A stretch of DNA of 33,563 nt from Bacteroidales bacterium (GTDB lineage: Bacteria > Bacteroidota > Bacteroidia > Bacteroidales > UBA12077). Position numbers and translations under genes: made by a program. Each line of letters begins with the position of its first letter. Position 1 is the stretch's first letter. Positions 918 through 22,650 of the stretch are shown piece by piece. Where the stretch lies: the NCBI GenBank assembly GCA_028282585.1, contig JANQHR010000108.1:1-33563 (forward strand), given 5' to 3'. The notes below the pieces were generated by a model. It searched no databases and was not told where the DNA came from. It saw only the letters and a program-made list of their open reading frames with translations.

Positions 918-2102
918 TTAAATAAATTTCATGCTTACTTCTTTCAAAAACTTGTTTTCCAAAGTTTCTGCAATACGACGAACAACCGTTCTTCTTATTT
1001 CAAGTTCGACAGGTAAGTTTGGATCCTGGTGGGCGATATTTACCCTTGTGCCTATTACAAAATGTATTTCATCGCTTTCCTTTAAAAGTTTAACTATTTG
1101 ATCGGCTGGTCCTTTGCCAAGTAAATAATTATTATTATAAACTTTAAGAATTTCGGACACTTTACTAAGCGTAAGAATACCTTCGGTAACCAAGTCTATT
1201 CCTGTCATATAAGCTACTGGAGGAAGGTCGGGATCATGGAACTCAAAGCTGTCTTCAATTTCAAGTTCTAATTCACGTGAAATAATGTCAGCGGTAGTTG
1301 CCCCGCTTAGAATCTTTTTTCCTTCAAAATTCTTAACAACTTCAGCTAGTTTTATATCTCTTTCTTCTTCGTAAGGAGGTCCTGTACAGAGCAGTAATTT
1401 TCTAGGTTCTCTAAAATAAATGGCTGCACAACTGGTATCATCTTTTGCGTGGTAACCATCATTTTGGTAAGCCATATTAACAATTTTTCCAGCCAATTTA
1501 TTTGCAGATATTTCAGGGTTGTTGGCAACTAATCTTTTTGTAAAATCTTCCAGATTATCATGCCCCCAACCAAAAGGATATTTTGCACTTCCCATACCTG
1601 ATTGTGTAATTCCATCGCTGCAAAATATAATTCGATCTTCCTTTTGTGCATGAAAAGTACAGTTTTTTAATATTTTACCAGCATTTTGTTCTCCTTCCAT
1701 AACAACAGTTTGCCACTTAGGATCAAATATCTGATCTTTTCTGATTATTATAGTTTCGGGATTGTCATATTCCAATATATTTGTTTTACCGTCTTCTTCA
1801 ATATCAATTATAGTAAACGTTGAGTAGCTAATGTGTCGCTTGCTGCAAACGGGCAAGGTATTCATAATAATTTCAGCAATACGGTTAACATCTTTATGCT
1901 CCTTAGTGAAATTTAATGCCATGGTCGAGGTAAGTGTAGCTAGCATATTAGCTTTAACTCCGTGCCCCATGCCATCCGATAGAACTACAATGGTCCGTTC
2001 TTCAGCTTTTATTCTTTCTGAAAGAAATACATCACCACAGATCCTTTCACCTTCGTGATTTTTCTGAATGCAGTCAACTTCTATGTAAAACTTATTATCC
2101 AT
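918..2102 (-). CDS. SpoIIE/PP2C-family Ser/Thr phosphatase, HfsC-like
   Basis: Metal-binding motifs CGD, VLSDGMGHG, CSDGI and KDDTS; C-terminal extension (GPP, DLVTEGILTL, NIAHQ) as in hydrogenase-linked phosphatases; lies directly downstream of a hydS-like gene. Confidence 0.9.
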   Translation of the reverse strand: MDNKFYIEVDCIQKNHEGERICGDVFLSERIKAEERTIVVLSDGMGHGVKANMLATLTSTMALNFTKEHKDVNRIAEIIMNTLPVCSKRHISYSTFTIIDIEEDGKTNILEYDNPETIIIRKDQIFDPKWQTVVMEGEQNAGKILKNCTFHAQKEDRIIFCSDGITQSGMGSAKYPFGWGHDNLEDFTKRLVANNPEISANKLAGKIVNMAYQNDGYHAKDDTSCAAIYFREPRKLLLCTGPPYEEERDIKLAEVVKNFEGKKILSGATTADIISRELELEIEDSFEFHDPDLPPVAYMTGIDLVTEGILTLSKVSEILKVYNNNYLLGKGPADQIVKLLKESDEIHFVIGTRVNIAHQDPNLPVELEIRRTVVRRIAETLENKFLKEVSMKFI

Positions 2103-2227
2103 CTTTTATTTTCAAATCCTAAACTGTGAAAAATCGACAATCTTTTGCAATTACTTACCGCATAGTATTTCACGTTTATAACTAATTTACTATTTGGACA
2201 ATTTACGAATACACATTTAAGCCATCA

Positions 2228-4087
2228 TTATTCCTTCTTGCTCATTTTATATAATTCGATTATTGAATTTAGCATCTGCTCAGTTTCCGATGCTCCTTCT
2301 CCTAATAAGAACCCTATCTTTTGCACCATTGCCAGATTTTTATCTATTACATCAGTAACCCTTTTTAGAACTTCTTCTTTTCTAACTTCAGGTGAATACA
2401 TATCTCTAAAAACCGCTCCAAGTATTTTTCCTTTTCTAATTGTAAATATGGATAGATTTAATAGTTTATCTTCAATATGAATATCTCTATTTAATATATT
2501 TTCATTTGATGAGAAAACATGAGAAAACATATTGTAAATATTAAACGGAAGCAGAGTTTTAAGGTCGGCTCCTATTAAACCTGGAATAACTTCATCTATT
2601 GATTTGGCTTCTTCACCTAAGAGTTCTATAAAACTATTGTTGGAATGTATTATTTTTAAGTTTTTATCTAATATTACAACTCCTGACGGTAGTTTCTGAA
2701 GCATTCTGCCAATTGTATCCGAGGCCTCTTTTGCTGCTTCTTTTTCTTTTTGTGCAACCTCTTCAGATTCTTGTAAGGCCTTTTGGGTTTGAGCTAATTT
2801 CTCGTTTGTAGATTTTAATGCCTTGATGTAATCGTGCCTGTTTCTTAGTGAGAATGTTAAACACATATCTACCTTCGCTAATCCTTTAGCTACCGCAACA
2901 GCAAAATCCCGACAGGTATTATATCCGCATGCATTACATCCCAGGTTAGGATTTTTACCTTCTTTCCCAATAGCCTTTAATATTTCATTAATTCTATCTT
3001 CAGAAGGCATTTCGATTCTCTGATTATCATTTATAAAGTTTCTTGAATAATCAAGATTCCAAAATTTATCAATTTCTTCTTGCCACTTTTCTTTATTGAA
3101 GTTTTTAAGTCTTTTATTAGCATAATCAGTTACTCGGGTTCTTCGAATAAATTTTTTCCCGGCTTTAGAGGTTCCGGGCCCCATTAAACAACCTTCACAG
3201 TAATAAAGATTGAAATGTTTCCTAATGGTATCAATATCCTTATGAAACTGCTTTGTAGCATTTAGCATATTTGCCTTACCCTCGGCAGTTATGACTTCAC
3301 CTTCCAGTAAATTTTCGCTAATATTAGCTGCTTGCAACAGGCCATTCGCTATTGGGAATAATGAACCTTTATAACCAATCGGTGGGTCAAATTCAGCAAA
3401 TTCTACTTTACTTTCTTTAATCTTAAATTCATCAAATAACTCGCGTAGTTCATGAAAAGTTAAAACTGAGTCGATTTTTCCATCTCCATCAAATAAGTTA
3501 GCTTCATCCTTACTGTCAATACATGGGCCGATATAAATCACCTTTATATCATTTCCATAAAGTTCTCTTACAATCTTAGATGTTGCAACCATAGGTGAAA
3601 CTAATGGAGCCAGATTTTCAACCAATTCCGGTTGAAATTTTTGAACATGAGAAACAACCACCGGACAAGCCGTTGTTATATAATATTTTCCTTTAAAGTT
3701 TTTAAATAATTCGGCATATTTAAATGCTACGATATCTGCTCCAAATGAAACTTCGTTGACATAATCAAAACCTAGTGATTTAATCATTTGAACAAATTTG
3801 CGGTAATCGGTTATATCATGGAATTCACCTGAAATACTTGGAGCTACGATAGCAACTTTTTTATTTTTCGATTTTAATATCTCCTTTGTAGCTGATTTTG
3901 AATCGCGATATGTTATAGCATTTTCAGGGCATACAGAAGTGCAACTTCCACATCCGATACATCGATCCGGAATTATTCTCGCATAATCTCTGTTAGCTTT
4001 TACCTCTATTGCATTTACAGGGCAAACTCTTACACATGAATAACTTAAGTTACATTTATCTTTTAATATCTCAACTAATGGTTTCAT
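2228..4087 (-). CDS. hydS: Group C (sensory, phosphatase-linked) [FeFe]-hydrogenase with FeS and PAS domains, HydS/HfsB-like
   Basis: N-terminal ferredoxin motifs (CNLSYSCVRVCP, CIGCGSCTSVCP); H-domain motifs APS, TTACP, GPCIDSKDE and NLYYCEGCLMGPG; CNACGYNTC...C FeS domain; coiled coil; PAS (LQKLPSGVVILD...N.SF); C-terminal QKIGFLLGE helix. Confidence 0.85.
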   Translation of the reverse strand: MKPLVEILKDKCNLSYSCVRVCPVNAIEVKANRDYARIIPDRCIGCGSCTSVCPENAITYRDSKSATKEILKSKNKKVAIVAPSISGEFHDITDYRKFVQMIKSLGFDYVNEVSFGADIVAFKYAELFKNFKGKYYITTACPVVVSHVQKFQPELVENLAPLVSPMVATSKIVRELYGNDIKVIYIGPCIDSKDEANLFDGDGKIDSVLTFHELRELFDEFKIKESKVEFAEFDPPIGYKGSLFPIANGLLQAANISENLLEGEVITAEGKANMLNATKQFHKDIDTIRKHFNLYYCEGCLMGPGTSKAGKKFIRRTRVTDYANKRLKNFNKEKWQEEIDKFWNLDYSRNFINDNQRIEMPSEDRINEILKAIGKEGKNPNLGCNACGYNTCRDFAVAVAKGLAKVDMCLTFSLRNRHDYIKALKSTNEKLAQTQKALQESEEVAQKEKEAAKEASDTIGRMLQKLPSGVVILDKNLKIIHSNNSFIELLGEEAKSIDEVIPGLIGADLKTLLPFNIYNMFSHVFSSNENILNRDIHIEDKLLNLSIFTIRKGKILGAVFRDMYSPEVRKEEVLKRVTDVIDKNLAMVQKIGFLLGEGASETEQMLNSIIELYKMSKKE

Positions 4088-4101
4088 ACAATTAATAGAA
4101 A

Positions 4102-4347
4102 TTAATCTTGGGCAAATAGGTTATTTAATAAAAAGATCACATTTTCAGGTGTAATATTCTGATATTCCTTATTATCAACTTTTAAAATTGGACCGTTTGC
4201 ACAATTTCCATAGCAATGATTTCCATGGAAAAAAACTTTATCTTCCAATTGATGTTCCTTTACATAATCTTTAATAATCTTTACAGTATTTTTATTTCCT
4301 CTTGAAAAGCAGGAACTACCCAAACATATTATAATCTCTTTTTTCAT
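4102..4347 (-). CDS. Thioredoxin-like [2Fe-2S] protein (NuoE-like small subunit), HfsA-like
   Basis: CLGSSC...CYGNC..GP (CxxxxC...CxxxC) in 81 aa; first gene of the hfsABC-like operon. Confidence 0.88.
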   Translation of the reverse strand: MKKEIIICLGSSCFSRGNKNTVKIIKDYVKEHQLEDKVFFHGNHCYGNCANGPILKVDNKEYQNITPENVIFLLNNLFAQD

Positions 4348-4535
4348 TTAAAGGTTTTATCAAAATTCCAGATACAATATTTTTCTTGCAAGATAGCTAA
4401 AATTATGATTGTTGCTGTAAAATATGATAGTATGTTATAAAATATGTAAATATGTGGATTTATTTAATATATTCGATTTGTATGATAATGTGTTTATTAT
4501 TAGATAGTTGTTGTTTTATTGGCTTTGCTATCGTA

Positions 4536-4570
4536 TTGTTAATAAAATAACAGTGTTCCAAAATTAACAA
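4536..4570. promoter_or_regulatory. Tandem Rex-type operators
   Basis: TTGTTAA-TAAA-ATAACAG (4536-4553) and GTGTTCC-AAAA-TTAACAA (4553-4570) resemble TTGT(G/T)AA-N4-TT(C/A)ACAA; rex is in the downstream operon. Confidence 0.7.
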
Positions 4571-4578
4571 TAAATGAT

Positions 4579-4586
4579 TATATTTG
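4579..4586 (+). promoter_or_regulatory. Bacteroidota sigma-70 -7 element for the hydCBA operon
   Basis: TATATTTG matches TAnnTTTG exactly, 30 nt upstream of the ATG at 4617. Confidence 0.65.
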
Positions 4587-4616
4587 CATCAATAGTTCTT
4601 AAATAAAAAATGGTTT

Positions 4617-5078
4617 ATGTCACGTTTAGATGAAATACTGGAAAAGTATCCATTTGTTCAAAGAGATAATCTTATTCCAATATTACAAGACATTCAGGAT
4701 GAGTTTGGATGCTTGACTGAAGAGGCCATTGTGAAAGTGGGGAAATATTTAAACCTACCAACAGCCAAAATATTCGGTTTGGCAAGTTTTTATAATCATT
4801 TTCGATTTGTAAAGAAGGGTAAATATCATATTAAAGTTTGTAATGGAACTTCTTGTCATGCTTACGGAAATACTTTAATCTTAAATGAGCTCGAAAAGAA
4901 ACTTGAGATAAAAAGTGATGAAGTAACTAAGGATGGTAATTTTAGTATTGAAGAATCAACATGTATGGCTTCATGCGGTAATGGACCTGTAGTTTCTGTT
5001 AATGAAAGATATTATACAAATGTAGATATCGAAAAGCTTGTTGAAATAATTGATTATTATAAAGGTTTGGAAGAATAA
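4617..5078 (+). CDS. hydC: NuoE-like [2Fe-2S] subunit of a HydABC-type hydrogenase (HydC/HndA-like)
   Basis: LIPILQDIQ helix, ASFYNHF, and CNGTSC...CMASC..GPV [2Fe-2S] ligands. Confidence 0.9.
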   Translation: MSRLDEILEKYPFVQRDNLIPILQDIQDEFGCLTEEAIVKVGKYLNLPTAKIFGLASFYNHFRFVKKGKYHIKVCNGTSCHAYGNTLILNELEKKLEIKSDEVTKDGNFSIEESTCMASCGNGPVVSVNERYYTNVDIEKLVEIIDYYKGLEE

Positions 5079-5081
5079 ATT

Positions 5082-7028
5082 ATGTCTCAAGATAGTATTA
5101 AATATAAAGAGTTCTTGATATCTAATGTACTTAAGGCAAAGGAAGAAATTCAAGATAAAAATGTTTTAAACACGCTACAATTTTTACAGCGTAAAAGAAT
5201 TGAAAAACCAATTATTACAATATGTATAAGTTCGTCTTCAATAGTAACAGACGTTTATTATTTAAAAGAAAATATTGAGGAATACCTTATTGAAAGAGAT
5301 ATAGACGCAGAATTAATTCCGGTTGGAAGCATTGGCTTATGTAGCTTAGAAGTTATTTTATCGGTTCAGTTACCTGGTAAAACACAGCTTTTCTATAAAC
5401 AGGTATCACCTGAAAATATTATTTCAATTCTTGATGGAACATTTAACAATTTTATTCAAGAAGAAAATGTATTAGGACAACAAAGAAATGAACTGCAAGA
5501 TCCATGGGAAAATGTACCATTTTTGGATGAGCTTGCTTATTTTAAAAATCAACAAAGATTAGTACTGAATAATTGTGGATTTGTTAATCCCGAATCTATT
5601 GAAGAATATATTGCACAGGGTGGATATAAATCTTTTTATAGCGCTATAAATTTTCATACCCCGGAAGAGATTTGTGATATAATTGAGAATAGCGGACTTC
5701 GTGGGCGTGGAGGAGAAGGTTTTTCTACAGGAAAAAAATGGAAAATTGCTTATCAAACACCTAGTGATCAGAAATATCTGATTTGTAATGCAGGGGAAAG
5801 TGATCCTGGGGCATTTATGGAACGTTTACTTATGGAAAGTGACCCTCACAAATTAATTGAAGGAATTGCCATTTCTGCTTATGCGATTGGAGCACAAAAA
5901 GCTTATATATATATTGAATCAGAATATGAACTTTCAATCGAAAGAATAAAAAATGCAATTATACAGGCAAAGCAATATGGAATTCTAGGTCACGATATAT
6001 TTGAAAGTGGATATAATTTTGAAGTTATAATAAAGAAAGGGGCAGGAGCTTACGTTTGTGGAGAAGAAACTGCTTTAATCAGTAGTTTGGAAGGTAAACG
6101 TGGAAAACCGCATTCTAAACCGCCGTATCCGGCAGTTCAAGGATTATATAACCAACCAACGGTTGTAAACAACGTTGAGACGCTTGTAAACATTCCAGTT
6201 ATCATAGAAAAAGGTGCTGAATGGTTTAGTTCAGTTGGGACAAAAGAAAGCAAAGGAACCAAAGTATTTTCCGTATCGGGGAAGGTAGATCTGAATTGTC
6301 TTGCAGAGGTTGAAATGGGAACCAAATTGAGAGATGTAATTTTCAGGGTTGCCGGGGGAATGAAAAATGGAAAACGATTTAAAGCAGCCCATATTGGAGG
6401 ACCATCCGGAGGTAGCTTAGCAGAAAATCATCTTGATACAATTATTGATTATGAGTCGGTAATGTTAACAGGAGTTTCTCTGGGATCAGCAGGAATAGTT
6501 GTTTTGGATGAAGATAACTGTGTTATTGATATGGTAAAATATTTCATGAATTTCATGAAAAAGGAAAGCTGTGGAATTTGTATACCTTGTAGAGAAGGAA
6601 CAAGAAGAATGCATGAAATACTTGAGAACATTAGTAAACGTCCGGTTGATGAAAACGGACATACAACTTTACAGCGCTTTAAAGGAGTAATGCAACTGGA
6701 GAGTCTGGCTGAAGTTCTAAAAGATACATCAATGTGTGGATTAGGCCGTAAAGCATCTAATCCGGTATTAAGCACGTTAAAATGGTTCAGAGAAGAATAT
6801 GAGGATCATATTTTTGAGCGTAAATGTGAAGCAGGAATATGTCAGGAGTTAAGAACATTTGAAATAGATGTGGAAGCTTGTACAGGATGTACTCTATGTG
6901 CTAAAAAATGTCCTACCGGGGCTATTTTTGGTACAGCCAGAAATGCTCATTTCGTTGTTCAGGATAAATGTATAGGATGCGGAATTTGTTTCGAAACTTG
7001 TAAGTTTTCTGCGGTAATAAGTAAATAG
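5082..7028 (+). CDS. hydB: NuoF-like FMN/NADH subunit of a HydABC-type hydrogenase (HydB/HndC-like), divergent
   Basis: SGLRGRGG, CNAGESDPGAFM, YVCGEETALISSLEG, GGPSG, ESCGICIPCREG...MCGLG, HIFERKCEAGIC and two C-terminal CxxCxxCxxxC motifs. Confidence 0.9.
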   Translation: MSQDSIKYKEFLISNVLKAKEEIQDKNVLNTLQFLQRKRIEKPIITICISSSSIVTDVYYLKENIEEYLIERDIDAELIPVGSIGLCSLEVILSVQLPGKTQLFYKQVSPENIISILDGTFNNFIQEENVLGQQRNELQDPWENVPFLDELAYFKNQQRLVLNNCGFVNPESIEEYIAQGGYKSFYSAINFHTPEEICDIIENSGLRGRGGEGFSTGKKWKIAYQTPSDQKYLICNAGESDPGAFMERLLMESDPHKLIEGIAISAYAIGAQKAYIYIESEYELSIERIKNAIIQAKQYGILGHDIFESGYNFEVIIKKGAGAYVCGEETALISSLEGKRGKPHSKPPYPAVQGLYNQPTVVNNVETLVNIPVIIEKGAEWFSSVGTKESKGTKVFSVSGKVDLNCLAEVEMGTKLRDVIFRVAGGMKNGKRFKAAHIGGPSGGSLAENHLDTIIDYESVMLTGVSLGSAGIVVLDEDNCVIDMVKYFMNFMKKESCGICIPCREGTRRMHEILENISKRPVDENGHTTLQRFKGVMQLESLAEVLKDTSMCGLGRKASNPVLSTLKWFREEYEDHIFERKCEAGICQELRTFEIDVEACTGCTLCAKKCPTGAIFGTARNAHFVVQDKCIGCGICFETCKFSAVISK

Positions 7029-7037
7029 TCAAGAGTT

Positions 7038-8762
7038 ATGCCAATCGAAATAGAGGTAAATAATAAAAAAATACAAGCTAAAAAAGGTGAAACAGTTTTA
7101 GAAGTTTTAAACAGAGGTGGCATAAAGGTGCCGACTCTATGCAGAATGGAGGGATTTTCAGCTACAGGAGCTTGCAGAATGTGTGTGGTTGAGGTTGAAG
7201 GCAAATCAGATTTAATTCCATCGTGTTCTTATCCAATCGAAAAATCCTTAAAGATAAGAACGCACACCCCCCGGGTAATTAAGGCAAGAAAAATGCTTGT
7301 TGAACTGCTTCTTTCAAATCATCCTGATGATTGTTTATATTGTTCAAGTAATAGTAATTGTGAACTTCAGGATATGGCAGTTGAACTTAATATTCGAGAG
7401 AGAAGAATCTCAGGAGAAAAAACAAAAGCCAATATAGACCAATCGAGTCCGGGAATTGTTAGGGATCCGGCTAAGTGCATTTTATGTGGCCGTTGTGTTA
7501 GAGTATGCGAAGAAGTTCTTGGAGTTTCTACCTTTGATTTTAAAAAGCGGGGTCATAAAACTGGTATTGCAACCAGTATGGATAAGGACCTAAACTTTTC
7601 GAATTGCGTTCATTGCGGACAATGTTTAGTAGTTTGCCCAACAGGTTCTTTATATGAGAAAACAAATATTGATGTGGTCCAACAAATGTTGAACAATAGA
7701 GATATTGAAGTAATTGTTCAATATTCTCCAAGTATTGCTATTTCTATTGCAGATGAGTTGGGGTTACGTCCCGGGAAAGACTTAAACGGAATTTTAAATG
7801 CAGTTCTGAGGAGAATGGGTTTCAGTAAAATTTTTGATACTTCTTTTGCTGCGGATATTGCAATTTTTGAGCAAGCTGCAGAATTAGCCGATAGGATTAA
7901 AAATGAAGAAAATATCCCAATGATAAGCAGTTGCTGCCCGGCATGGATTAAGCATATGGAGCAATCATTCCCTGATATGACGGATCATGTTTCGACAACA
8001 AAATCACCACAACAAGTTTTAGGAGCTTTGATTAAGACTTATTATGCTGATAAAGAGGATATTTCTCCTGAAAAGATTTTCTCAGTATCAATTATGCCAT
8101 GTACCGCAAAAAAATTCGAATCGCAACGTGAAGAAATGACGCAGCGTGGAATTTCCGACATAGATGCAGTATTAACTACTCGTGAACTATTGAAATTAAT
8201 CAGACTTTATGGTATAGATGTACATTCTATTGATGAAGAAATATCAGATAATCCATTTAATACAAGAAGCTCGGCTTCTAAATTAGTTTCAGTTTCAGGA
8301 GGACTATCAGAGAGTGTGGCAAGAACGTTATGTTACCATTTAACGGGTAAAGAATTACCAGATCTTAAAATTACAAAACTTAGAGGAACAAAAGAGTTTC
8401 GCAAGACTGATATTAAGGTAGGAAAGCATAATGTCGGCTTTGCTGTAATTAATGGACTGGGAGCGGCTAGTAACTTGATATCAGATATTAGAGAAGGTAA
8501 AAGTAAGGTTCAATTTATTGAAATTATGGCTTGTCCGGGAGGATGTATTAATGGAGGAGGACAGCCCTATGATACCGATGAGAAATCATTAAAGAACAGA
8601 TCAAAGGCTATATATGACCTGGATGAAAAAGAAGCTATTAAAGTAGCCCATAAAAACCCTAATTTAATTAATTTATACAAAGAGTTTTTAGGAGAACCTT
8701 TCGGAGAAAAGGCTGTTAAATTATTGCATACCAGCTATAAAAAACGTGATGTTTTATTATAA
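7038..8762 (+). CDS. hydA: Group A3-like [FeFe]-hydrogenase large subunit (HydA/HndD-like), divergent active site
   Basis: [2Fe-2S] (C...GACRMC...SC), His-ligated [4Fe-4S] (HPDDCLYCSSNSNC), 2x[4Fe-4S]; H-cluster motifs SSCCPAW, MPCTAKKFE and EIMACPGGCINGGG; C-terminal LLHTSY. Confidence 0.92.
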   Translation: MPIEIEVNNKKIQAKKGETVLEVLNRGGIKVPTLCRMEGFSATGACRMCVVEVEGKSDLIPSCSYPIEKSLKIRTHTPRVIKARKMLVELLLSNHPDDCLYCSSNSNCELQDMAVELNIRERRISGEKTKANIDQSSPGIVRDPAKCILCGRCVRVCEEVLGVSTFDFKKRGHKTGIATSMDKDLNFSNCVHCGQCLVVCPTGSLYEKTNIDVVQQMLNNRDIEVIVQYSPSIAISIADELGLRPGKDLNGILNAVLRRMGFSKIFDTSFAADIAIFEQAAELADRIKNEENIPMISSCCPAWIKHMEQSFPDMTDHVSTTKSPQQVLGALIKTYYADKEDISPEKIFSVSIMPCTAKKFESQREEMTQRGISDIDAVLTTRELLKLIRLYGIDVHSIDEEISDNPFNTRSSASKLVSVSGGLSESVARTLCYHLTGKELPDLKITKLRGTKEFRKTDIKVGKHNVGFAVINGLGAASNLISDIREGKSKVQFIEIMACPGGCINGGGQPYDTDEKSLKNRSKAIYDLDEKEAIKVAHKNPNLINLYKEFLGEPFGEKAVKLLHTSYKKRDVLL

Positions 8763-8773
8763 AACTTAGTGAA

Positions 8774-10756
8774 ATGGCAAATAAGGACAGAGATTTAGTA
8801 TATACGCTTAAGAATAGATGCAGGGTCTGCTATACCTGCGTAAGAGAGTGTCCTGCCAAGGCTATTAAAATAATTAACGGGCAGGCAGAAGTATTAAACG
8901 AACGTTGTATTGTTTGTGGGAATTGTACTAAAGTCTGCAGTCAGGGGGCTAAAGTATATTTAAATACGGAAGATCGTTTTCATAGCTTATTAAAAAATGG
9001 AAGAAAGAATGTAGCTATTGTTGCACCAAGTTTTCCTGCAGAGTTTAAGGAAATCTCCAATCATAAAATTTTTGTTTCAATGATTAGGGCAATCGGTTTT
9101 GATGTAGTTTCTGAAGTTGCTTTTGGTGCTGATTTAGTTGCAAAAAAATATCGGGAATTAATTGATAAAGGAAGTGATAAATGCTTTATATCATCTGACT
9201 GCCCGGCAGTGGTTTCATATATTGAGCATTATCATTCAGCTTTAGTAAAAGATTTGGTACCCATTGCTTCTCCTATGGTAGCTATGTCAAGAGTTGTAAA
9301 AAAGAAATATGGTGATGACATTAATCTGATTTTTATAGGCCCTTGTGTTGCAAAAAAATCAGAGTCAGATGAAGTAGATGAAATGATTACTTTCACCGAA
9401 TTAAGAAATGTATTTGAAGAGAAAAGAATTACACAAAAAACTGTAGTTCCAACCGAATTTGATCCTCCGCTCGGAGGAAAAGGTGCTATTTTTCCGGTTA
9501 GCAGGGGATTGTTACAAACCGCAGGAATAACAGATGATGTATTTGATGGGAATATTATTGTTGCAGAAGGAAGAACAAATTTTCAAGAAGCAATTAAAGA
9601 ATTTGAGGATGGTTTATTACGTTCTCATCATTTGGAGTTATTAAGTTGTGAAGGTTGTATTATGGGACCCGGAATGTCGAGTAAAGGAAAGCATTATGCT
9701 CGCAGAATTTTAGTTAATAATTATGTTCAAAAAAAGATTAATAGCTTAAATGAAGCCGATTGGCAAAAGCAAATTGATGAGTACATTGATATTGATTTAT
9801 CAGCAGAATTTGAACCTAAGCATAAATCATTGAAATTTCCAGATTGGAGTGAGATTAAGAAAGTATTGGAATCTATGGGAAAACTTACACCAAAAGATCA
9901 TTTAAATTGTGGTGCTTGTGGTTACGAATCATGCGAAGATCATGCAACAGCTATTGTACAGGGGTTAGCTGAAAATGAAATGTGTTTGCCATTTACTATA
10001 GAAAAGCTACACAATTCTGTAAATGAACTTGCAATAACCAATGATAAGCTTACTTCAATGCAGCAAGCCTTGAAGCAATCAGAGAAAATGGCAAGTATGG
10101 GGCAGTTATCAGCAGGTATTGCACATGAATTAAATAATCCACTTGGAGTAGTAATCATGTATGCGAATATATTGTTAGATGAAGCCAAGAAGGATTCTGC
10201 TATTTATAAGGATCTTAAATTGATTGTTGACCAAACAAACAGATGCAAAAAAATTGTGGGTGGATTATTAAATTTTGCAAGAAAGAATCAGGTTAACTCA
10301 TCAAAAATTGATATTATAAAACTGGCAAAAGAAAGTGTTCAGGCTGTGGTGGTTCCGAAGCAAATAGAAGTGTTAATTGATCAGGAGAATGTTAAGGATC
10401 CTCATGCAATGATCGATCATGAGCAAATGATGCAGGTTTTAACTAATTTGATCAAGAATGCGATTGACGCAATGCCCGATGGTGGAAAAATTGACATCAA
10501 GCTTGAAGATAATAACGATGAAGTGTTTTTTATAGTAAAGGATACAGGAATTGGAATCGATAAAGAGGCAATAGATAAAATATTTGAACCATTTTATACA
10601 ACAAAAGGAATTGGAATGGGAACAGGATTAGGACTTGCAACAACTTATGGTATTGTTAAAATGCATAAAGGAAAAATTACAGTATTTTCAAATAATGATC
10701 CTGAAAAAGAACCAACAGGAACAGAATTTAAGGTATCAATTCCAAGGTTTCAGTAA
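8774..10756 (+). CDS. Group C (histidine kinase-linked) [FeFe]-hydrogenase domain fused to HisKA-HATPase_c
   Basis: 2x[4Fe-4S] (CRVCYTCVRECP, CIVCGNCTKVC); H-domain SSDCP, GPCVAKKSE and ELLSCEGCIMGPG; CGACGYESC...C FeS domain; coiled coil; H-box AHELNNPL, N-box NLIKNA, DTGIG, FEPFYTTK and GTGLGL. Confidence 0.9.
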   Translation: MANKDRDLVYTLKNRCRVCYTCVRECPAKAIKIINGQAEVLNERCIVCGNCTKVCSQGAKVYLNTEDRFHSLLKNGRKNVAIVAPSFPAEFKEISNHKIFVSMIRAIGFDVVSEVAFGADLVAKKYRELIDKGSDKCFISSDCPAVVSYIEHYHSALVKDLVPIASPMVAMSRVVKKKYGDDINLIFIGPCVAKKSESDEVDEMITFTELRNVFEEKRITQKTVVPTEFDPPLGGKGAIFPVSRGLLQTAGITDDVFDGNIIVAEGRTNFQEAIKEFEDGLLRSHHLELLSCEGCIMGPGMSSKGKHYARRILVNNYVQKKINSLNEADWQKQIDEYIDIDLSAEFEPKHKSLKFPDWSEIKKVLESMGKLTPKDHLNCGACGYESCEDHATAIVQGLAENEMCLPFTIEKLHNSVNELAITNDKLTSMQQALKQSEKMASMGQLSAGIAHELNNPLGVVIMYANILLDEAKKDSAIYKDLKLIVDQTNRCKKIVGGLLNFARKNQVNSSKIDIIKLAKESVQAVVVPKQIEVLIDQENVKDPHAMIDHEQMMQVLTNLIKNAIDAMPDGGKIDIKLEDNNDEVFFIVKDTGIGIDKEAIDKIFEPFYTTKGIGMGTGLGLATTYGIVKMHKGKITVFSNNDPEKEPTGTEFKVSIPRFQ

Positions 10757-10770
10757 TAAAATTAAAGATT

Positions 10771-11166
10771 ATGGCAGAGAACAAAAAGCAAATACTAATA
10801 GCCGATGACGATGAGGATTACCTATTCCAAATGGAGGCTTATATTAGAAGTTTTGGTTTTGATGTAATAAAAGCTGAAAGTCAGAAAGAAGCTGAAATAT
10901 TAATCGAAAATACAAAACCGGATTTGGCTATTTTTGATTTAATGATGGAAAGGGATGATAGCGGTTTTATGCTTTGCTATAAGATGAAAAGAAAACATCC
11001 TGATGTGCCAATTATTTTAGCAACTGCCGTAGCTTCTGAGACAGGGATTTCATTCGGAGTAAACTCTCCAACTGATCAGCAATGGATAAAAGCGGATTTG
11101 TACTTAGAAAAAGGAATCAGAAAAGATCAGTTGCACAGAGAAATTAATAAATTATTAAAGTTATAA
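10771..11166 (+). CDS. Single-domain response regulator (receiver only)
   Basis: ILIADDD, phospho-acceptor DLMM, IILAT and YLEKG; no output domain. Confidence 0.88.
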   Translation: MAENKKQILIADDDEDYLFQMEAYIRSFGFDVIKAESQKEAEILIENTKPDLAIFDLMMERDDSGFMLCYKMKRKHPDVPIILATAVASETGISFGVNSPTDQQWIKADLYLEKGIRKDQLHREINKLLKL

Positions 11167-11304: not shown

Positions 11305-12423
11305 ATGAAGAAATTAAATGTTTTAGTTGTGGATGATGAGCCGGGGATTCGTTCCGGGGTGAGTAGAATATTAAGTAATTTTACGGTTAGCTATCCTTTT
11401 ATGGATACTGATATTGGATTTAATATACTTGAGGCAGAAACAGGTGAGAAGGCAATTGATATTATTGATTCAGAACAAATTGAGATTGTTCTTTTAGATA
11501 ATAAATTACCTGGTATACAGGGAACTGATGTTCTTGATTTTATCAATAAAAATAAACCGGACATTCTGGTAATGATGATAACTTCTTATGCATCATTGGA
11601 GTTGGCAATTAAAGCAACTAACATTGGAGCTCATGATTTTATTCCTAAACCATTTACACCACAGGAGTTAAAATCGTCTTTAGAAAATGTATCCAAGCAT
11701 CTTTTCCTTAGAGGGATGACAAAGAAAATGAATAAAGAAGGAAAAGAAATCCGTTATCAGTTTTTATCAGTATTGTCGCATGAATTAAAAGCACCCTTAA
11801 ACGCGATAGACGGATATTTACGTATGATGCAAAATAAAGAAGTGGGTGATAATATTGAGGATTATCAACAGATGATTGATAGATCTTTAAATAGAATAAA
11901 AGGCATGCGAAATCTTATTATGGATTTGTTGGACTTGACCAAAATTAGATTAGAAAAGAAAACAGAACGGTTAGAGAATGTAAAAATTAAAGATATTGCA
12001 CAAAATGCAATTGAAGCTATCAACCCTTATGCAATTCAAAAAGATGTAACAATTAATTTAATAGATGAAAGTAATTGTATATTGAATGCAGACCCAAGTG
12101 ATATGGAGATCATTTTTAATAATTTGATATCTAATGCTGTAAAATATAACAAAAACGGGGGTTCCGTTGATGTAAAACTTAAATGTAATAAGGGCAATTT
12201 GATAATAATTGTGAGTGATACAGGTATAGGAATGACGAATGAAGAAACAACAAAACTGTTTAATGAATTTTTCAGGGTTAAAAGTGAGCAAACTAAACAT
12301 ATTACGGGAAGCGGATTAGGGCTTTCCATAGTAAAAGGTATAGTTAACTTATATAAGGGCGAAATTAGTGTGGAAAGTAAGATTGGTGAAGGTTCTACTT
12401 TCCGTATAATATTGCCAGTGTAA
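11305..12423 (+). CDS. Hybrid receiver-histidine kinase (REC-HisKA-HATPase_c), cytoplasmic
   Basis: VLVVDDE, LLDNKLPG and FIPKPF receiver; SHELKAPL H-box, NLISNAVKY, DTGIG and GSGLGL. Confidence 0.92.
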   Translation: MKKLNVLVVDDEPGIRSGVSRILSNFTVSYPFMDTDIGFNILEAETGEKAIDIIDSEQIEIVLLDNKLPGIQGTDVLDFINKNKPDILVMMITSYASLELAIKATNIGAHDFIPKPFTPQELKSSLENVSKHLFLRGMTKKMNKEGKEIRYQFLSVLSHELKAPLNAIDGYLRMMQNKEVGDNIEDYQQMIDRSLNRIKGMRNLIMDLLDLTKIRLEKKTERLENVKIKDIAQNAIEAINPYAIQKDVTINLIDESNCILNADPSDMEIIFNNLISNAVKYNKNGGSVDVKLKCNKGNLIIIVSDTGIGMTNEETTKLFNEFFRVKSEQTKHITGSGLGLSIVKGIVNLYKGEISVESKIGEGSTFRIILPV

Positions 12424-12463
12424 TTTTTTTTTGTAAATTGACCAGTTAAATAATTTGATTGAT

Positions 12464-13090
12464 ATGAATAGACTTCCAGAAAAAACGATAGGAAGATTAA
12501 GTGAATACAGAAGAACTTTATTGAATTGTTTAGCCGATGGCAAAACACATATTTATTCACATGAATTAGCAAATTTACACAATATTACTGCCGTTCAGGT
12601 TCGAAGGGATATTATGCTAATTGGATATTCAACCACCTTAAAGAAAGGTTATGATGTTAAAGCATTAATTGATGTTATCGGTGATATTATTGATACCGAA
12701 AAAGGGTTGAATGCTGCAGTTATTGGAATAGGTAATTTAGGACGAGCTATAACAACTTACTTTAAAGGCAAAAGAACAAAATTGAAAATTGCCGCTACAT
12801 TTGATACTGATCCGGAGAAAACAAATAGAGTTATATCAGGTGTTAAGTGTTACCCAATGGGTGAATTAAATAATGTTATAAAGGAGCAGGATATTAAGAT
12901 AGGTATATTAACTGTACCTCCAGAAGATGCTGCAGCTGTCTCGGAATCTTTGATTATGGCAGGTATAAAAGGCATTCTGAATTATACATCAACACCTTTG
13001 AATGTTTCTCCAAATGTGTACCTCGAGGAATACGATATGATTACGTCTTTGGAGAAAGTAGCTTATTTTGTAAAACAAACTGAGGAATAG
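12464..13090 (+). CDS. rex: Redox-sensing transcriptional repressor Rex
   Basis: LPEKTIGRLSEY...SHELA...QVRRD...GYDV winged helix, GIGNLG Rossmann motif, AGIKGILNY. ATG at 12464 preferred over TTG at 12455. Confidence 0.92.
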   Translation: MNRLPEKTIGRLSEYRRTLLNCLADGKTHIYSHELANLHNITAVQVRRDIMLIGYSTTLKKGYDVKALIDVIGDIIDTEKGLNAAVIGIGNLGRAITTYFKGKRTKLKIAATFDTDPEKTNRVISGVKCYPMGELNNVIKEQDIKIGILTVPPEDAAAVSESLIMAGIKGILNYTSTPLNVSPNVYLEEYDMITSLEKVAYFVKQTEE

Positions 13091-13121
13091 TAGCCTAGAA
13101 TATGATTATGTTGTTTTGAAG

Positions 13122-14054
13122 ATGCAGGTACATAGAAGCTTTGAAAGTTTAAATCAAATTAAGAATCCGGTAGTTACAACAGGAACTTTTGATGGTGTTC
13201 ATTTAGGCCATAAAGTTATTATTGATCGTTTAAATAAATTGGCCAAAAACATTAGGGGTGAATCAGTTTTAATAACATTTCATCCGCATCCCAGAAGAGT
13301 CTTATATCCTGAAACGGCTGGTAAAAATCTAAAACTTATTAATTCACAAAATGAAAAGATACATTTGCTTGATAAAACTGGACTGGATCATCTGGTAATT
13401 ATTAACTTCACAAAGGAATTCTCTGAGACATCTTCGCATGAGTTTGTCGAAGGCATTTTACTAGCCAAACTAAAAGCAAAAATTATAATTGTTGGTTTTA
13501 ACCATCATTTTGGGCATAATCGTGAAGGTGATTATTCTTATTTATATGAATTAACCAAAACTCATGATTTTATTGTTGAAGAGATCCCGGAACAGGATTT
13601 GGAAAATGAAACGGTAAGTTCAACTATTATTCGTAAGGCATTGTTGGAAGGAAGAATTCAAAGAGCGAATGCTTATCTGGATCATTTTTTTATTGTAACC
13701 GGAAGGTTAAAAGATGGTCATCCAAAGTGTTTAGAAGTTGGATTTCCAACTCTTGAAATGATTGTGGAAGAAGATGTTAAGCTTGTTCCACCGGAAGGAG
13801 TATATGCTGTTAGCTTAACTTTGGAGGGTGTTAGATATCGTGGTATGTTAAATATTAAAACTTTTAAGGATTTAAATCTCCCCAGTATTCAGGTTCATTT
13901 ATTTGATTACGATTCAAATTTTAATTTAAAAAATAAAGAAGCTACAATTACTTTTCATAAAAGAATACGTGATGAACTTCAATTGAATAATGTACAAAGT
14001 CTTAAAAATCAATTAGAAAAGGATAAGGAAGTAATTGCAGAATTAATTTATTAA
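13122..14054 (+). CDS. ribF: RibF-family FAD synthetase; intact FMN adenylyltransferase domain, degenerate riboflavin kinase domain
   Basis: GTFDGVHLGH, TFHPHP, VGFNHHFG and VSSTIIR in the N-domain; GFPTLE, PPEGVY and IQVHLFD in the C-domain. ATG at 13122 preferred. Confidence 0.85.
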   Translation: MQVHRSFESLNQIKNPVVTTGTFDGVHLGHKVIIDRLNKLAKNIRGESVLITFHPHPRRVLYPETAGKNLKLINSQNEKIHLLDKTGLDHLVIINFTKEFSETSSHEFVEGILLAKLKAKIIIVGFNHHFGHNREGDYSYLYELTKTHDFIVEEIPEQDLENETVSSTIIRKALLEGRIQRANAYLDHFFIVTGRLKDGHPKCLEVGFPTLEMIVEEDVKLVPPEGVYAVSLTLEGVRYRGMLNIKTFKDLNLPSIQVHLFDYDSNFNLKNKEATITFHKRIRDELQLNNVQSLKNQLEKDKEVIAELIY

Positions 14055-19460: not shown

Positions 19461-20696
19461 ATGAAAAAATTAATCTACCATTTATTATTAATTCCACTAA
19501 TTATTATATCATGCCAAAATGATGAAGGTGGACCAGAATTTCCAACTGAGGAAAAGGAAATTATTTTATCTACAGAATCTATAAATATGGTAAATAGCGA
19601 TAACCAGTTTGGAATTGAATTTTTCAAAGAAATTATTGCAAGTGAACCGGATATAAATTTAATGATCTCACCACTAAGTTTGTCTCAGGCATTATTAATG
19701 ACTTATAATGGAGCTGATGGAGATACGAAAAGTGCTTTTGAAGAAACGCTTTTTCTAAATAGCTTAACAACAGAAGAAATTAATCAAGCTCAAAAAGACT
19801 TGGTTGAGGCATTATTAGAGGTTGATCCCGGTATAACAATTAGCATTGCTAATTCCATTTGGTGCAGAGAAGGTTTATCTGTGAAGCCTGAATTTATTAA
19901 TGTAAATCAAAATTATTATGATGCAGAAGTTAGAGAAGAACTATTTGATCAGAATACTGTAAATCTTATCAATTCATGGGTTAACGATAAAACAAATGGT
20001 AAAATCGATGATATAATTGATTCAATTGATCCTTTAACGGTTATGTTTTTAATAAATGCGGTATACTTTAAGGGAAACTGGAAGTTTGAATTTAGTGAGG
20101 AGAATACCGTTGATAGTGATTTTTATTTGAGTAATGGAAATACGATTGAAGTTCCGTTTATGAACCAGGAAGTTACTGCAAATTTAATGTATCATGATGT
20201 TTTCCAGATGCTTGAATTACCATATGGTAGAGGAAATTATAGAATGTTGATTTTACTACCAGTCGATGGTAAATCCATTCAAGATATGATCGAAGAACTG
20301 GATTTTGAAAATTATGACGAGTGGTTATTAAACCTTCAAGAAGGAAATGTTGAAGTTAGTATTCCTAAATTCAAATTTAAATATGAAAAAACGATCAATG
20401 ATTTGTTAAAATCAATGGGGCTTTCTGTTGCATTCGATCCGAATAATGCCGATTTCTCAAATATAAGTGAAGCTTTAGAATTATATATAAATAGAGTGAA
20501 ACATAAAACATTTGTTGAAGTAAATGAAAAAGGAACTGAAGCGGCTGCAGTGACGTCTGTTGATATATATACTAACAGTGCAGACCCAACCTATCATAAG
20601 TTTATTGCGAATAAACCGTTTTTATTTGTTATTCGTGAGAAATATACCAATTCAATTTTATTTATGGGTAAGGTAGAGGATCCTTCCAAAGAATAG
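19461..20696 (+). CDS. Serpin-family lipoprotein (miropin-like protease inhibitor)
   Basis: Lipobox IIISC; ISPLS, INSWVNDKTNGKI, LINAVYFKGNW, hinge EKGTEAAAVT and signature FIANKPFLFVI...ILFMG. Confidence 0.93.
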   Translation: MKKLIYHLLLIPLIIISCQNDEGGPEFPTEEKEIILSTESINMVNSDNQFGIEFFKEIIASEPDINLMISPLSLSQALLMTYNGADGDTKSAFEETLFLNSLTTEEINQAQKDLVEALLEVDPGITISIANSIWCREGLSVKPEFINVNQNYYDAEVREELFDQNTVNLINSWVNDKTNGKIDDIIDSIDPLTVMFLINAVYFKGNWKFEFSEENTVDSDFYLSNGNTIEVPFMNQEVTANLMYHDVFQMLELPYGRGNYRMLILLPVDGKSIQDMIEELDFENYDEWLLNLQEGNVEVSIPKFKFKYEKTINDLLKSMGLSVAFDPNNADFSNISEALELYINRVKHKTFVEVNEKGTEAAAVTSVDIYTNSADPTYHKFIANKPFLFVIREKYTNSILFMGKVEDPSKE

Positions 20697-21222: not shown

Positions 21223-22650
21223 ATGAAATTTTATCCAGAAAAATACAAAATTAAGGACCAACGAATGAAACCATTTATTGATCCTGAAGAAATTTGGGAT
21301 TATATAAATAACACGGAATCAAATAAGGAAAGAGTTCGAGAAGTTATTGCGAAGGCCTTAAATAAAAAAAGACTAAACCTTGAAGAAACAGCAGTTTTAA
21401 TAAATGCGAATGATCCGGAATTAATTGAAGAGATTAAGCAAGGAGCAAAAACTTTGAAGGAAAAAGTTTATGGAAATAGAATAGTATTATTCGCCCCATT
21501 GTATGTAGGAAATAAATGTACTAATAATTGCGAATATTGTGGATTTAAGGCTAGTAATAAGGATGCAATTCGTCAAACCTTAAGCGACCATGAGTTAGTA
21601 AAAGAAGTTGAAGCACTTGAAGACAATGGGCAAAAGAGGCTAATTCTTGTTTATGGTGAACATAAACATTATTCTCCTGAGTTTATAGCAAAAAATGTTA
21701 AAACGGTTTATAGTGTAAAGAAGGGAAACGGAGAAATAAGACGCGTAAATATAAATGCTGCACCACTTGATATTGAAGGATTTAGAACAGTTAAGGATGC
21801 AGGAATTGGTACGTATCAGATTTTCCAGGAAACTTATCATCCGGAAGCTTATGCAAAGTATCATCTTGGGGGTAAAAAGAGAGATTTTGAGTATAGGTTA
21901 ACTTCACTCGATAGGGCTCAAGAAGCAGGCTTAGATGATGTTGGTATAGGAGCTTTATTTGGATTATACGATTGGAGATACGAAGTTTTAGCTATGGTTC
22001 GGCATACGAATCATTTTGAGGCTTGCTATAATGTTGGTCCGCACACAATTTCATTTCCGCGTATACAAGATGCATCAGCAGTAAACGTTGATCCTAAGTA
22101 TATGATTACAGATGATGAATTTACCAGGTTAATAGCAATCTTAAGGTTGGCAGTTCCATATACCGGCTTAATATTAACTGCAAGAGAATCAGAGCAGGTC
22201 CGCCGTGAAGTTATGTCATTTGGGGTTTCTCAGATTGATGGAGGTACCAAATTAGAACTTGGGTCTTATCACCAAAGCCAGAATGAGGAGCAGAACCTTA
22301 ACCGTGAGCAATTCGCAATTAACGATAATAGGTCGTTAGCGGAAATTATAGACGAATTAATTGAAAACGAATATTTACCATCTTTCTGTACAGCCTGTTA
22401 TCGTTTGGGTAGAACAGGAGAGCATTTTATGGAATTTTCAGTACCTGGTTTTATTAAAAGGTTCTGTACACCAAATGCAATATTAACTTTGGCAGAATAT
22501 ATCGAAGATTATGCAACTCCAGAAGTAGCAGATAAGGCTTGGAAAATTATTGATAAAGAAATTAAAGGCTTGGATGATGAAAAAGTGGTGGGATTGCTTA
22601 ATAAAAGAATTGAAAAAATAAAACAAGGTGAAAGAGATATGTATTTTTAA
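21223..22650 (+). CDS. hydG: [FeFe]-hydrogenase H-cluster radical SAM maturase HydG
   Basis: FAPLY..N.CTNNCEYC radical SAM motif, FQETY, GPHTISFPR (dangler-Fe His) and auxiliary CTAC-x22-C motif, which distinguishes it from ThiH. Confidence 0.95.
   Translation: MKFYPEKYKIKDQRMKPFIDPEEIWDYINNTESNKERVREVIAKALNKKRLNLEETAVLINANDPELIEEIKQGAKTLKEKVYGNRIVLFAPLYVGNKCTNNCEYCGFKASNKDAIRQTLSDHELVKEVEALEDNGQKRLILVYGEHKHYSPEFIAKNVKTVYSVKKGNGEIRRVNINAAPLDIEGFRTVKDAGIGTYQIFQETYHPEAYAKYHLGGKKRDFEYRLTSLDRAQEAGLDDVGIGALFGLYDWRYEVLAMVRHTNHFEACYNVGPHTISFPRIQDASAVNVDPKYMITDDEFTRLIAILRLAVPYTGLILTARESEQVRREVMSFGVSQIDGGTKLELGSYHQSQNEEQNLNREQFAINDNRSLAEIIDELIENEYLPSFCTACYRLGRTGEHFMEFSVPGFIKRFCTPNAILTLAEYIEDYATPEVADKAWKIIDKEIKGLDDEKVVGLLNKRIEKIKQGERDMYF

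Follow-up and report, generated by a model that had tools for sequence, protein, structure and literature searches.

Can a group A [FeFe] hydrogenase lose the glutamate at the centre of its proton relay, and what would such a protein be kept for? The question is raised by hydA*, a gene on a 33,563-nucleotide stretch of Bacteroidales DNA (contig JANQHR010000108.1 of assembly GCA_028282585.1; the whole stretch is called the window here), whose product carries glutamine at the position of CpI Glu279. The group A proton chain is treated in the literature as strictly conserved and as the basis of the very high rates of these enzymes (PMC6226526; bioRxiv 10.64898/2026.09.22.753672; PMC10407848), and the C299-E279-S319-E282 pathway has itself been called 'strictly conserved' (PMC6226526). 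According to the same source, CpI E279Q and E279A retain less than 1% of H2 release; the glutamine fills the space of the carboxylate, no extra water is present, the exchange 'clearly interrupts' the pathway, and the hydride state is enriched when the relay is interrupted. The literature searched gave no account of a natural group A enzyme in which E279 is replaced, although supplementary material (Supplementary Table 2 of PMC12578642, for example) may be relevant, and the database names of the homologs are generic ('[FeFe] hydrogenase, group A' or 'ferredoxin'). The analysis presented here places HydA* in a widespread natural clade that lacks both the central glutamate and the entrance histidine of the relay, and whose H-cluster site is under purifying selection.

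Sequence of HydA* and register with CpI

The question turns on the following features of the gene:

7038-8762, plus strand: hydA*, a 574-residue M3-type group A [FeFe] hydrogenase catalytic subunit with Q279
7725-7739, plus strand: SPSIA, residues 230-234, where CpI has APSVR; A230S is clade-specific
7872-7874, plus strand: CAA codon of Gln279, at the CpI E279 proton-relay position
8277-8318, plus strand: SKLVSVSGGLSESV, residues 414-427, with V417, S418 and S424 in place of F, G and M
8715-8717, plus strand: V560, valine in place of the CpI H565 equivalent, the entrance histidine of the proton path

A Pfam scan of HydA* returned Fer2_4 ([2Fe-2S]), NADH-G_4Fe-4S_3 (NuoG-type [4Fe-4S]), two ferredoxin-type [4Fe-4S] sites, Fe_hyd_lg_C (287 bits) and Fe_hyd_SSU, that is, iron-sulphur (FeS), H-domain and small-subunit domains only, and no output domain (PAS, kinase). 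The best match among solved structures (phmmer) is T. kivui HydA1 (8a6t; E 7e-159), followed by A. woodii HydA1, T. maritima HydA and CpI. Because residues 209-412 align to CpI gap-free (HMMER alignment), the numbers of the two proteins coincide over this segment. The motif FEQAAELADR begins at residue 277, which places Q279, and the E-Q of HydA* corresponds to E-E in CpI, T. kivui HydA1, A. woodii HydA1 (7q4v) and T. maritima HydA (7p5h), so that Q279 stands opposite a glutamate in all four. Codons and alignment together bear out, at every position, the coordinates given in an earlier reading of the sequence alone (the sequence-only reading), including CAA at 7872-7874 and Q279.

A takeover of the relay by the adjacent Glu278, which the sequence-only reading had named as a possible objection, was considered and is untenable on the sequence. 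The alignment leaves no gap by which Glu278 could shift into the relay position, and all 64 rows of the glutamine clade described below have E278 and the H569 equivalent. Proton entry has been proposed to involve H565, H569, S320 and E278, and E278 has a role of its own in anchoring H569 (bioRxiv 10.64898/2026.09.22.753672).

The H-cluster motifs are intact: SSCCPAW at 297 (C299/C300), MPCTAKKFE at 353 and EIMACPGGC at 495, which match the L1 (xSCCPxW), L2 (MPCxxKxxE) and L3 (ExMxCxxGC) signatures with all four cysteines. HydA* retains E278, E282, R286, C299, S319, Q325, M353, K358, M497, P231 and C300/C355/C499/C503; residue placement thus upholds the earlier claim that C299, S319, E282, R286 and the three motifs are preserved. 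Along the group A pathway C299-E279-S319-E282, HydA* departs at position 279 only.

The pocket around the distal iron is altered. CpI shows GAIFGATGGVMEAA where HydA* shows SKLVSVSGGLSESV, and the exchange of F417 for valine, already noted from the sequence, is confirmed by the codon (GTT at 8286-8288). F417 belongs to the gas channel and lies near the amine bridge, and TmHydS has a tyrosine there (PMC11023054, PMC10055695). The clade-specific pocket changes are A230S (the S230 codon starts at 7725), F417V, G418S/A and M424S/A/T; T275A and T297S are further clade-specific changes near the relay or pocket, T275A sitting one helical turn from 279. The only acids gained in the clade, D316 and E400, both lie toward the surface. 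The reported conversion of APSVR to SPSIA is real, and its A230S part belongs to the clade; the loss of the arginine lies outside the special signature, because it is shared with E279-bearing relatives (of 50 such rows, 35 have S there, 11 have T, and R and P occur twice each). The valine at the H565 equivalent, V560, is a change that the sequence-only reading does not mention.

A clade with glutamine at 279

A set of 120 database H-domain homologs was aligned, and a tree was built with the signature columns removed. Residue 279 is Gln in 63 of them, Glu in 48, Leu in four, Met in two, and His, Gly and Ser in one each. The glutamine forms fall in one 64-row clade (63 Q and 1 H, query included; support 98), nested in a 77-row clade (support 99) that contains every non-Glu form and four Glu forms. 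Within the 64 rows, Gln279 is kept in 63, down to about 58% identity. E278, E282, S319, Q325, the four cysteines and the H569 equivalent are present in every row, and retention is also high for R286 (62), M497 (61), P231 (60), C299 (56), K358 (55) and M353 (48). S230 occurs in 62 of the 64 rows, position 417 is V, I, P, H, T or N, 418 is S or A, 424 is A, S or T, and the H565 equivalent is I, N, R, V, T or K. The corresponding residues in 50 Glu-form rows are A230 (47), F417 (46), G418 (44), M424 (43) and H565 (47). An IQ-TREE phylogeny of 49 genomic copies likewise recovers one 33-row variant clade (support 99), sister to the all-Glu forms of the same gene module; the variant clade has a single origin.

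Comparison of hydA* with its counterpart in a related genome (G401; proteins 91% identical) gave a nonsynonymous rate (dN) of 0.045 and a synonymous rate (dS) of 0.715; the ratio dN/dS is 0.062, and the gene is therefore under purifying selection. For the same pair of genomes, dN/dS is 0.062 for canonical paralog 1, 0.013 for canonical paralog 2, 0.017-0.028 for the sensors and 0.010 for Rex, which makes the constraint on hydA* about five times looser than that on canonical paralog 2 and equal to that on canonical paralog 1. Against a second genome, MAG82, the identities are 76% for HydA*, 79% for HydB* and 71% for HydC*, whereas the canonical subunits compared between the same two genomes reach 91% (HydA), 92% (HydB) and 89% (HydC), and the sensors 85-88%. 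The three variant subunits thus change faster than the main canonical copy.

Distribution in the order and canonical paralogs

Of the 401 genomes of the order covered by a census (that of the window included), 273 gave a match with an E-value of 1e-60 or lower; only the best hit of each genome was read, in 149 of them, the other 124 having weaker matches. Residue 279 is Glu in 80, Leu in 17, Gln in 16, Met in nine, Val in eight, Ile in eight, Thr in six, Ala in two, and Asn, Gly and Asp in one each. The frequency of the exchange, for which the sequence-only reading had proposed a survey, is thus 16 of 149 for glutamine and 69 of 149 for any residue other than glutamate. A copy was counted as fully canonical if it has E279, C299, M353, K358 and F417; 69 of the 80 Glu copies are of this kind, and 11 combine E279 with other key changes. 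All 69 non-Glu copies keep C300, C355, C499 and C503, and fewer keep K358 (47; Arg in 13), M353 (44), C299 (39; Asp in 10) or F417 (15). The H565 equivalent is found in one of the 69 non-Glu copies as against 66 of the 69 canonical copies, which indicates that the central glutamate and the entrance histidine were lost together. Judged from these sequences, position 279 appears free to be any non-acidic residue in the wider variant clade. Further erosion, with loss of C299, K358 and M353 in some members, is seen only in this clade.

The same picture extends to the nearest 150 representatives of 1.84 billion proteins clustered at 50%: 44 of 155 aligned stretches are non-Glu, with Gln in 10, and many of the non-Glu stretches are without C299, K358 and M353 but with the cysteines. 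The top match of that search, P0121 (1503 bits, 35% identity), has 4122 residues and seven separate H-domain-like stretches, and may be either a giant protein with multiple hydrogenase domains or an artefact of gene prediction. Asp is frequent at the C299 position of copies that have Leu or Ile at 279, and Tyr417, as in TmHydS (Y223), occurs in several variant copies; illustrative loci are L104, L129, L132, L143, L149, L177, L202 and L203, and the Asp299 and Tyr417 residues of these sublineages are hints of other proton routes. An uncultured Bacteroides locus (L010) has Val at 279. Two HydA matches (G274:C21:22155-23852 and G107:C20:25800-27515) contain one in-frame TAA each and are possibly broken copies.

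The genome of the window (4.89 Mb, 173 contigs) encodes seven Fe_hyd_lg_C proteins, among them two canonical HydA copies on contig C111, both with E-E, F417-G418 and H565. Orthologs of the second of these, canonical paralog 2 (PAR2-type; E <= 1e-200, 69-100% identical), occur in 170 of the 401 genomes, and in all 48 named loci read they have E279, C299, K358, F417 and H565. A PAR2-type HydA accompanies the module copy in 67 of the 69 non-Glu genomes and in all 11 genomes that have E279 with other key changes, as against two of the 69 genomes with a canonical module copy; another 90 PAR2-type genomes fall outside the 149 read. With at most three candidates scored per genome, two or more HydA-like matches were found in 68 of the 69 non-Glu genomes, and a single match in 31 of the 69 canonical ones. 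Several genomes have the canonical and the variant operon on one contig, 8-20 kb apart. It was also observed that the canonical hydCBA-HydS-kinase module and the PAR2-type HydBAC operon are nearly mutually exclusive, both being present in only two of 69 genomes. Since relatives are not independent of one another, the co-occurrence counts, and those of HydB cluster loss given below, are descriptions and not statistical tests.

Operon partners and maturation

The genes that would supply HydA* with partner subunits and with one maturase are:

4617-5078, plus strand: hydC*, NuoE-like thioredoxin-like [2Fe-2S] subunit (PF01257, 158.6 bits)
5082-7028, plus strand: hydB*, NuoF-like subunit for flavin mononucleotide (FMN) and NADH with a C-terminal 2x[4Fe-4S] part (Pfam Complex1_51K, NADH_4Fe-4S, Fer4)
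21223-22650, plus strand: hydG, H-cluster radical-SAM maturase (TIGR03955, 510 bits; cut-off 312)

Only 3 nucleotides separate hydC* from hydB* and 9 nucleotides hydB* from hydA*. The subunit set of group A3, an M3-type HydA adjoined by a NuoF-like HydB and a NuoE-like HydC, is complete, and the best solved match of HydB* is A. woodii HydB (7q4v_B, E 2.5e-180). The full A3 cluster set of HydB, N-terminal [2Fe-2S] site included, is not: the N-terminal thioredoxin-like domain of HydB* (residues ~44-90) has one of its three motif cysteines left, and the HydB forms of L008, L009 and L025 have none. Loss of these ligands is confined to the variant clade, where it occurred independently in several sublineages including that of the window, whereas the canonical module HydB has at least three motif cysteines in 13 of 13 alignable forms. 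Such HydB cluster differences were sought in PMC7311640 and not found in the part of that paper available to us. The gene hydG lies 12.5 kb downstream of hydA* on the same contig, with HydE and HydF encoded elsewhere in the genome; a bacterial serpin gene (19461-20696; PF00079, 386 bits) stands between the module and hydG.

The sensor and regulator island

The operon continues into, and is flanked by, genes for signalling proteins:

8774-10756, plus strand: HydS-histidine kinase, with a sensory-type H-domain, FeS, HisKA and HATPase domains (Pfam), 11 nucleotides after hydA*
10771-11166, plus strand: stand-alone receiver (response regulator; PF00072), syntenic in relatives
11305-12423, plus strand: hybrid receiver-histidine kinase (Pfam), syntenic in relatives
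12455-13090, plus strand: Rex-like redox-sensing regulator (Pfam Put_DNA-bind_N and CoA_binding)
13116-14054, plus strand: RibF, flavin adenine dinucleotide (FAD) synthetase / riboflavin kinase (Pfam), found after Rex in most variant-clade loci
4102-4347, minus strand: thioredoxin-like [2Fe-2S] protein of 81 residues, hfsA-like (PF01257, 39.3 bits; cut-off 24.8)
2228-4087, minus strand: HydS2, a second sensory-type H-domain protein, hfsB-like, 619 residues (Pfam Fe_hyd_lg_C, 144.9 bits, Fer4, FeS), with Ala at the C299 position
918-2102, minus strand: PP2C/SpoIIE phosphatase, hfsC-like (PF07228), 64-88% identical in syntenic loci

The plus-strand order is therefore hydC*, hydB*, hydA*, HydS-histidine kinase, receiver, receiver-kinase hybrid, Rex-like and RibF, and an hfs-like minus-strand unit (918-4347) diverges from hydC*. 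RibF makes FMN and FAD, of which the former is the cofactor of HydB. Synteny was analysed in 40 genome loci with 8-kb flanks. The core hydC-hydB-hydA-HydS-kinase-response regulator-hybrid kinase is present in 35; three of the remaining five have no HydS-kinase match (L140, L143 and L145, the last also without the hybrid kinase), and L156 and L157 have few downstream genes. All eight genes, PP2C through hybrid kinase, stand in the same order in L008, L009 and L011, and do so up to the contig end in L017 and L025; L010 holds the part from hydC to the hybrid kinase only. The PP2C-HydS2 pair stands upstream in 22 of the 40 loci (19 non-Glu and 3 Glu with a changed pocket) and is absent from 18 (16 Glu and 2 non-Glu). 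Rex lies downstream in 29 variant-clade loci as against none of 16 loci outside the clade; among the three variant-clade loci in which it is missing, two end at the contig end and one is truly without it.

The HydS-kinase has D at the C299 position (SSDCP), G at M353 and L at M497, together with the four cysteines and the phospho-histidine, and these features are invariant in 39 of 39 loci across the canonical and variant clades (loci L008-L011 and L118-L155). CpI C299D keeps 30-80% activity (PMC6226526), and the characterised sensors carry Ala at this position. The invariance of the kinase ligands rules out the idea that the kinase has no H-cluster of its own and that HydA* senses for it.

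Another candidate link was rejected. The 81-residue [2Fe-2S] protein might have compensated for the lost HydB cluster; its gene is present in 23 loci, each with the PP2C-HydS2 pair, and it also occurs beside an intact HydB. Co-evolution of the PP2C-HydS2 unit with loss of E279 was not significant in a test of independent pairs (2-4 usable pairs, p = 1), a test that is powerless because the variant clade arose once.

No PAS domain was found in HydS2 by the Pfam scan. A search for Rex operators with a Firmicutes consensus found 3 sites at 3 mismatches, where chance alone predicts 5.5, and none of them lies in the intergenic region upstream of hydC* (4088-4616); a scan for sigma-70 promoters and terminators, which is uninformative for this phylum, was at or below shuffle expectation.

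Interpretation of the locus

Our preferred explanation, held with only slightly better than even confidence, is that HydA* is a HydABC-type (group A3-like) catalytic subunit that binds the H-cluster, has its relay cut, turns over slowly and was specialised after duplication. In this protein the classical proton chain is cut mid-way by the exchange of E279 for Gln, its entrance histidine (CpI H565) is gone, and the distal-iron pocket is relined by S230, V417, S418 and S424. By analogy with CpI E279Q, protons would leave or reach the active site only slowly, and HydA* is expected to turn over H2 at rates far short of those of the two canonical HydA paralogs in its genome. Canonical HydABC would have taken over bulk H2 metabolism, and the duplicate would keep a low-flux, specialised job; purifying selection together with a near-constant canonical HydABC companion looks like the pattern of a specialised duplicate. 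The two sensory hydrogenases, the phosphorelay, the PP2C phosphatase and Rex, along with persistence under selection, suggest that this job is regulatory or redox-poising.

The sequence-only reading had proposed a cofactor-binding but very slow enzyme suited to sensing. Its first element fits well: the four cysteines, K358, M353, M497, Q325 and C299 are kept, HydG, HydE and HydF are encoded, and HydA* most likely still assembles the H-cluster. Great slowness is a reasonable expectation by analogy, given the residual activity of CpI E279Q (<1%; PMC6226526) and the loss of H565 along with the glutamate. Suitability for sensing is no more than possible. An output domain is missing from HydA*, and C299, M353 and M497 are present, unlike in groups C and D; the hydC-hydB-hydA operon that encodes it also codes for an intact NADH/FMN subunit, and the H-cluster ligands of the neighbouring HydS-kinase are retained in all 39 loci.

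Several observations weigh against a slow, specialised duplicate. The invariance of E282 and S319 (64 of 64), with R286 in 62 and Gln279 in 63 rows, suggests that the rest of the relay is still used, and T275A could make room for bridging waters, in which case the loss of rate may be smaller than in CpI E279Q. As dN/dS of hydA* equals that of paralog 1, its selection is relaxed only relative to paralog 2. The links to the canonical paralog, to Rex and to the hfs-like unit are inseparable from shared ancestry because the clade has a single origin, and the census rests on the best hit per genome in 149 genomes only.

A rival proposal is that HydCBA* is a fully competent, normal-rate bifurcating hydrogenase, in which a rerouted or water-bridged path compensates for E279Q and the exchange tunes only bias or pH optimum. 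Gln279 would hold waters, and A275, S230 and S418 would add room and hydroxyls. We consider this unlikely. It accords with the conservation of E282, S319, R286, C299, E278 and H569 in a sub-clade where Gln is fixed (63 of 64), with the clustering of T275A, A230S, T297S and G418S around relay and pocket, with the dN/dS of 0.062, and with the other proton routes used by groups C and D (PMC10407848). In the wider clade, however, position 279 is L, M, V, I, T, A, N or G with no common compensating residue, no new acid has appeared inside the chain (D316 and E400 point toward the surface), the entrance residue H565 is lost as well, CpI E279Q gained no extra water and fell below 1% activity (PMC6226526), and the variant is almost never alone in a genome. 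The sequencing or assembly error that the sequence-only reading had allowed for, or a decaying pseudogene, has a negligible probability and is rejected: Gln279 recurs in 63 database homologs and 16 census genomes, the frame is open without stops, dN/dS is 0.062, the eight-gene order recurs in five named loci from metagenome-assembled genomes, two of them ending at contig ends, and at least the order from hydC to the hybrid kinase is found in 35 of 40 genome loci.

Two further proposals concern what the complex would do. HydCBA* may be a dedicated H2- or redox-sensing complex, the [FeFe] counterpart of the [NiFe] regulatory hydrogenase, in which H2 split at a proton-trapped H-cluster would charge the FeS/FMN chain almost stoichiometrically, and the HydS-kinase phosphorelay and/or Rex would read the redox state and set expression of canonical HydABC, encoded in the same island. 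This is unlikely. Also improbable is that no H2 chemistry is left and that the H-domain serves as a [4Fe-4S] scaffold within a complex for NAD(H)/ferredoxin electron transfer or for redox sensing. All 69 non-Glu census copies keep the four cysteines while C299 (39), K358 (47) and M353 (44) are kept less often, many of the nearest 150 representatives retain the cysteines without these three residues, and the HydB FeS site was lost in several sublineages, all of which would suit a scaffold. The window protein and its sub-clade, by contrast, keep C299 (56 of 64), K358 (55), M353 (48), M497 (61), Q325 (64) and P231 (60), residues whose only known function is to hold or tune the [2Fe] subcluster, and the contig also carries hydG, 12.5 kb further downstream. 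Relatives that are more eroded may have lost H2 chemistry completely.

Whichever role applies, the clade offers enzymologists natural counterparts to the engineered E279 variants and allows a direct test of the weight of the relay in a bifurcating complex. A non-Glu best match occurs in at least 69 of the 401 genomes of the order, almost always with canonical HydABC too, and metagenome surveys that count every 'group A3' gene as H2-producing may over-count. The A3 enzyme of Bacteroides thetaiotaomicron has low activity and low transcription (PMC12578642), on which the finding may bear. If the sensing reading were true, the eroded relatives, with C299, K358 and M353 lost and the cysteines kept, would form a large unrecognised family of hydrogenase-derived redox sensors.

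Comparison with known systems

The nearest functional analogy for a sensing role is the [NiFe] regulatory hydrogenase (HoxBC / HupUV), an unrelated family in which an energy-converting hydrogenase has turned into a low-turnover H2 sensor beside a histidine kinase (PMC5665086); the analogy is possible and of function only. A closer parallel, a Glu-to-Gln exchange at its proton gate, was considered and not confirmed, the source naming instead a Gln that replaces a conserved His (PMC5665086). The divergent unit of the window is comparable to hfsABCD of Thermoanaerobacterium and to HydS of Ruminococcus albus. Its gene order and content (918-4347) appear to be those of hfsA-hfsB-hfsC in Thermoanaerobacterium. 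The hfs genes have been treated as a regulator (PMC5707799).

The putative sensory groups C (TmHydS) and D (TamHydS) resemble HydA* in that the canonical path is not intact, in the low turnover expected, and in their signalling neighbours. In these sensors C299 has mostly given way to Ala, M353 to Gly, Ser or Thr, and M497 to Ser, whereas HydA* keeps all three, and they carry or adjoin PAS or other output domains (PMC10055695, PMC10407848). HydA*, unlike the sensors, has the full M3 N-terminal cluster chain and HydB/HydC partners, and its residues at the three diagnostic positions place it outside the sensory groups. The engineered CpI E279Q and CrHydA1 E141Q (Duan et al. 2018, PMC6226526) carry the very same exchange at the very same site and likewise retain C299, S319, E282 and R286. 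There the exchange was engineered, whereas the glutamine of HydA* is natural, fixed in its clade and accompanied by loss of H565, by T275A and by the pocket changes; given these further changes, the >99% loss of activity of CpI E279Q may not transfer quantitatively.

The closest systems are the HydABC enzymes of group A3 (8a6t, 7q4v, 7p5h), with which the variant shares the three-subunit set, the domain layout and all cluster ligands of HydA and HydC. HydA* scores 435.8 bits with the group A model TIGR02512, above the cut-off of 405.95, and its best-scoring model is NF040763 (NADH-dependent group A6), which at 723.9 bits falls just short of its cut-off of 765. It differs from the A3 enzymes by Q279, V560, A230S, F417V, G418S and M424S, HydB* differs in having lost most of its N-terminal [2Fe-2S] ligands, and hydA* is putatively co-transcribed with the HydS-kinase in a sensor-rich island. 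HydA* has the subunit set of group A3 and departs from canonical A3 in the proton pathway and in the N-terminal cluster of HydB.

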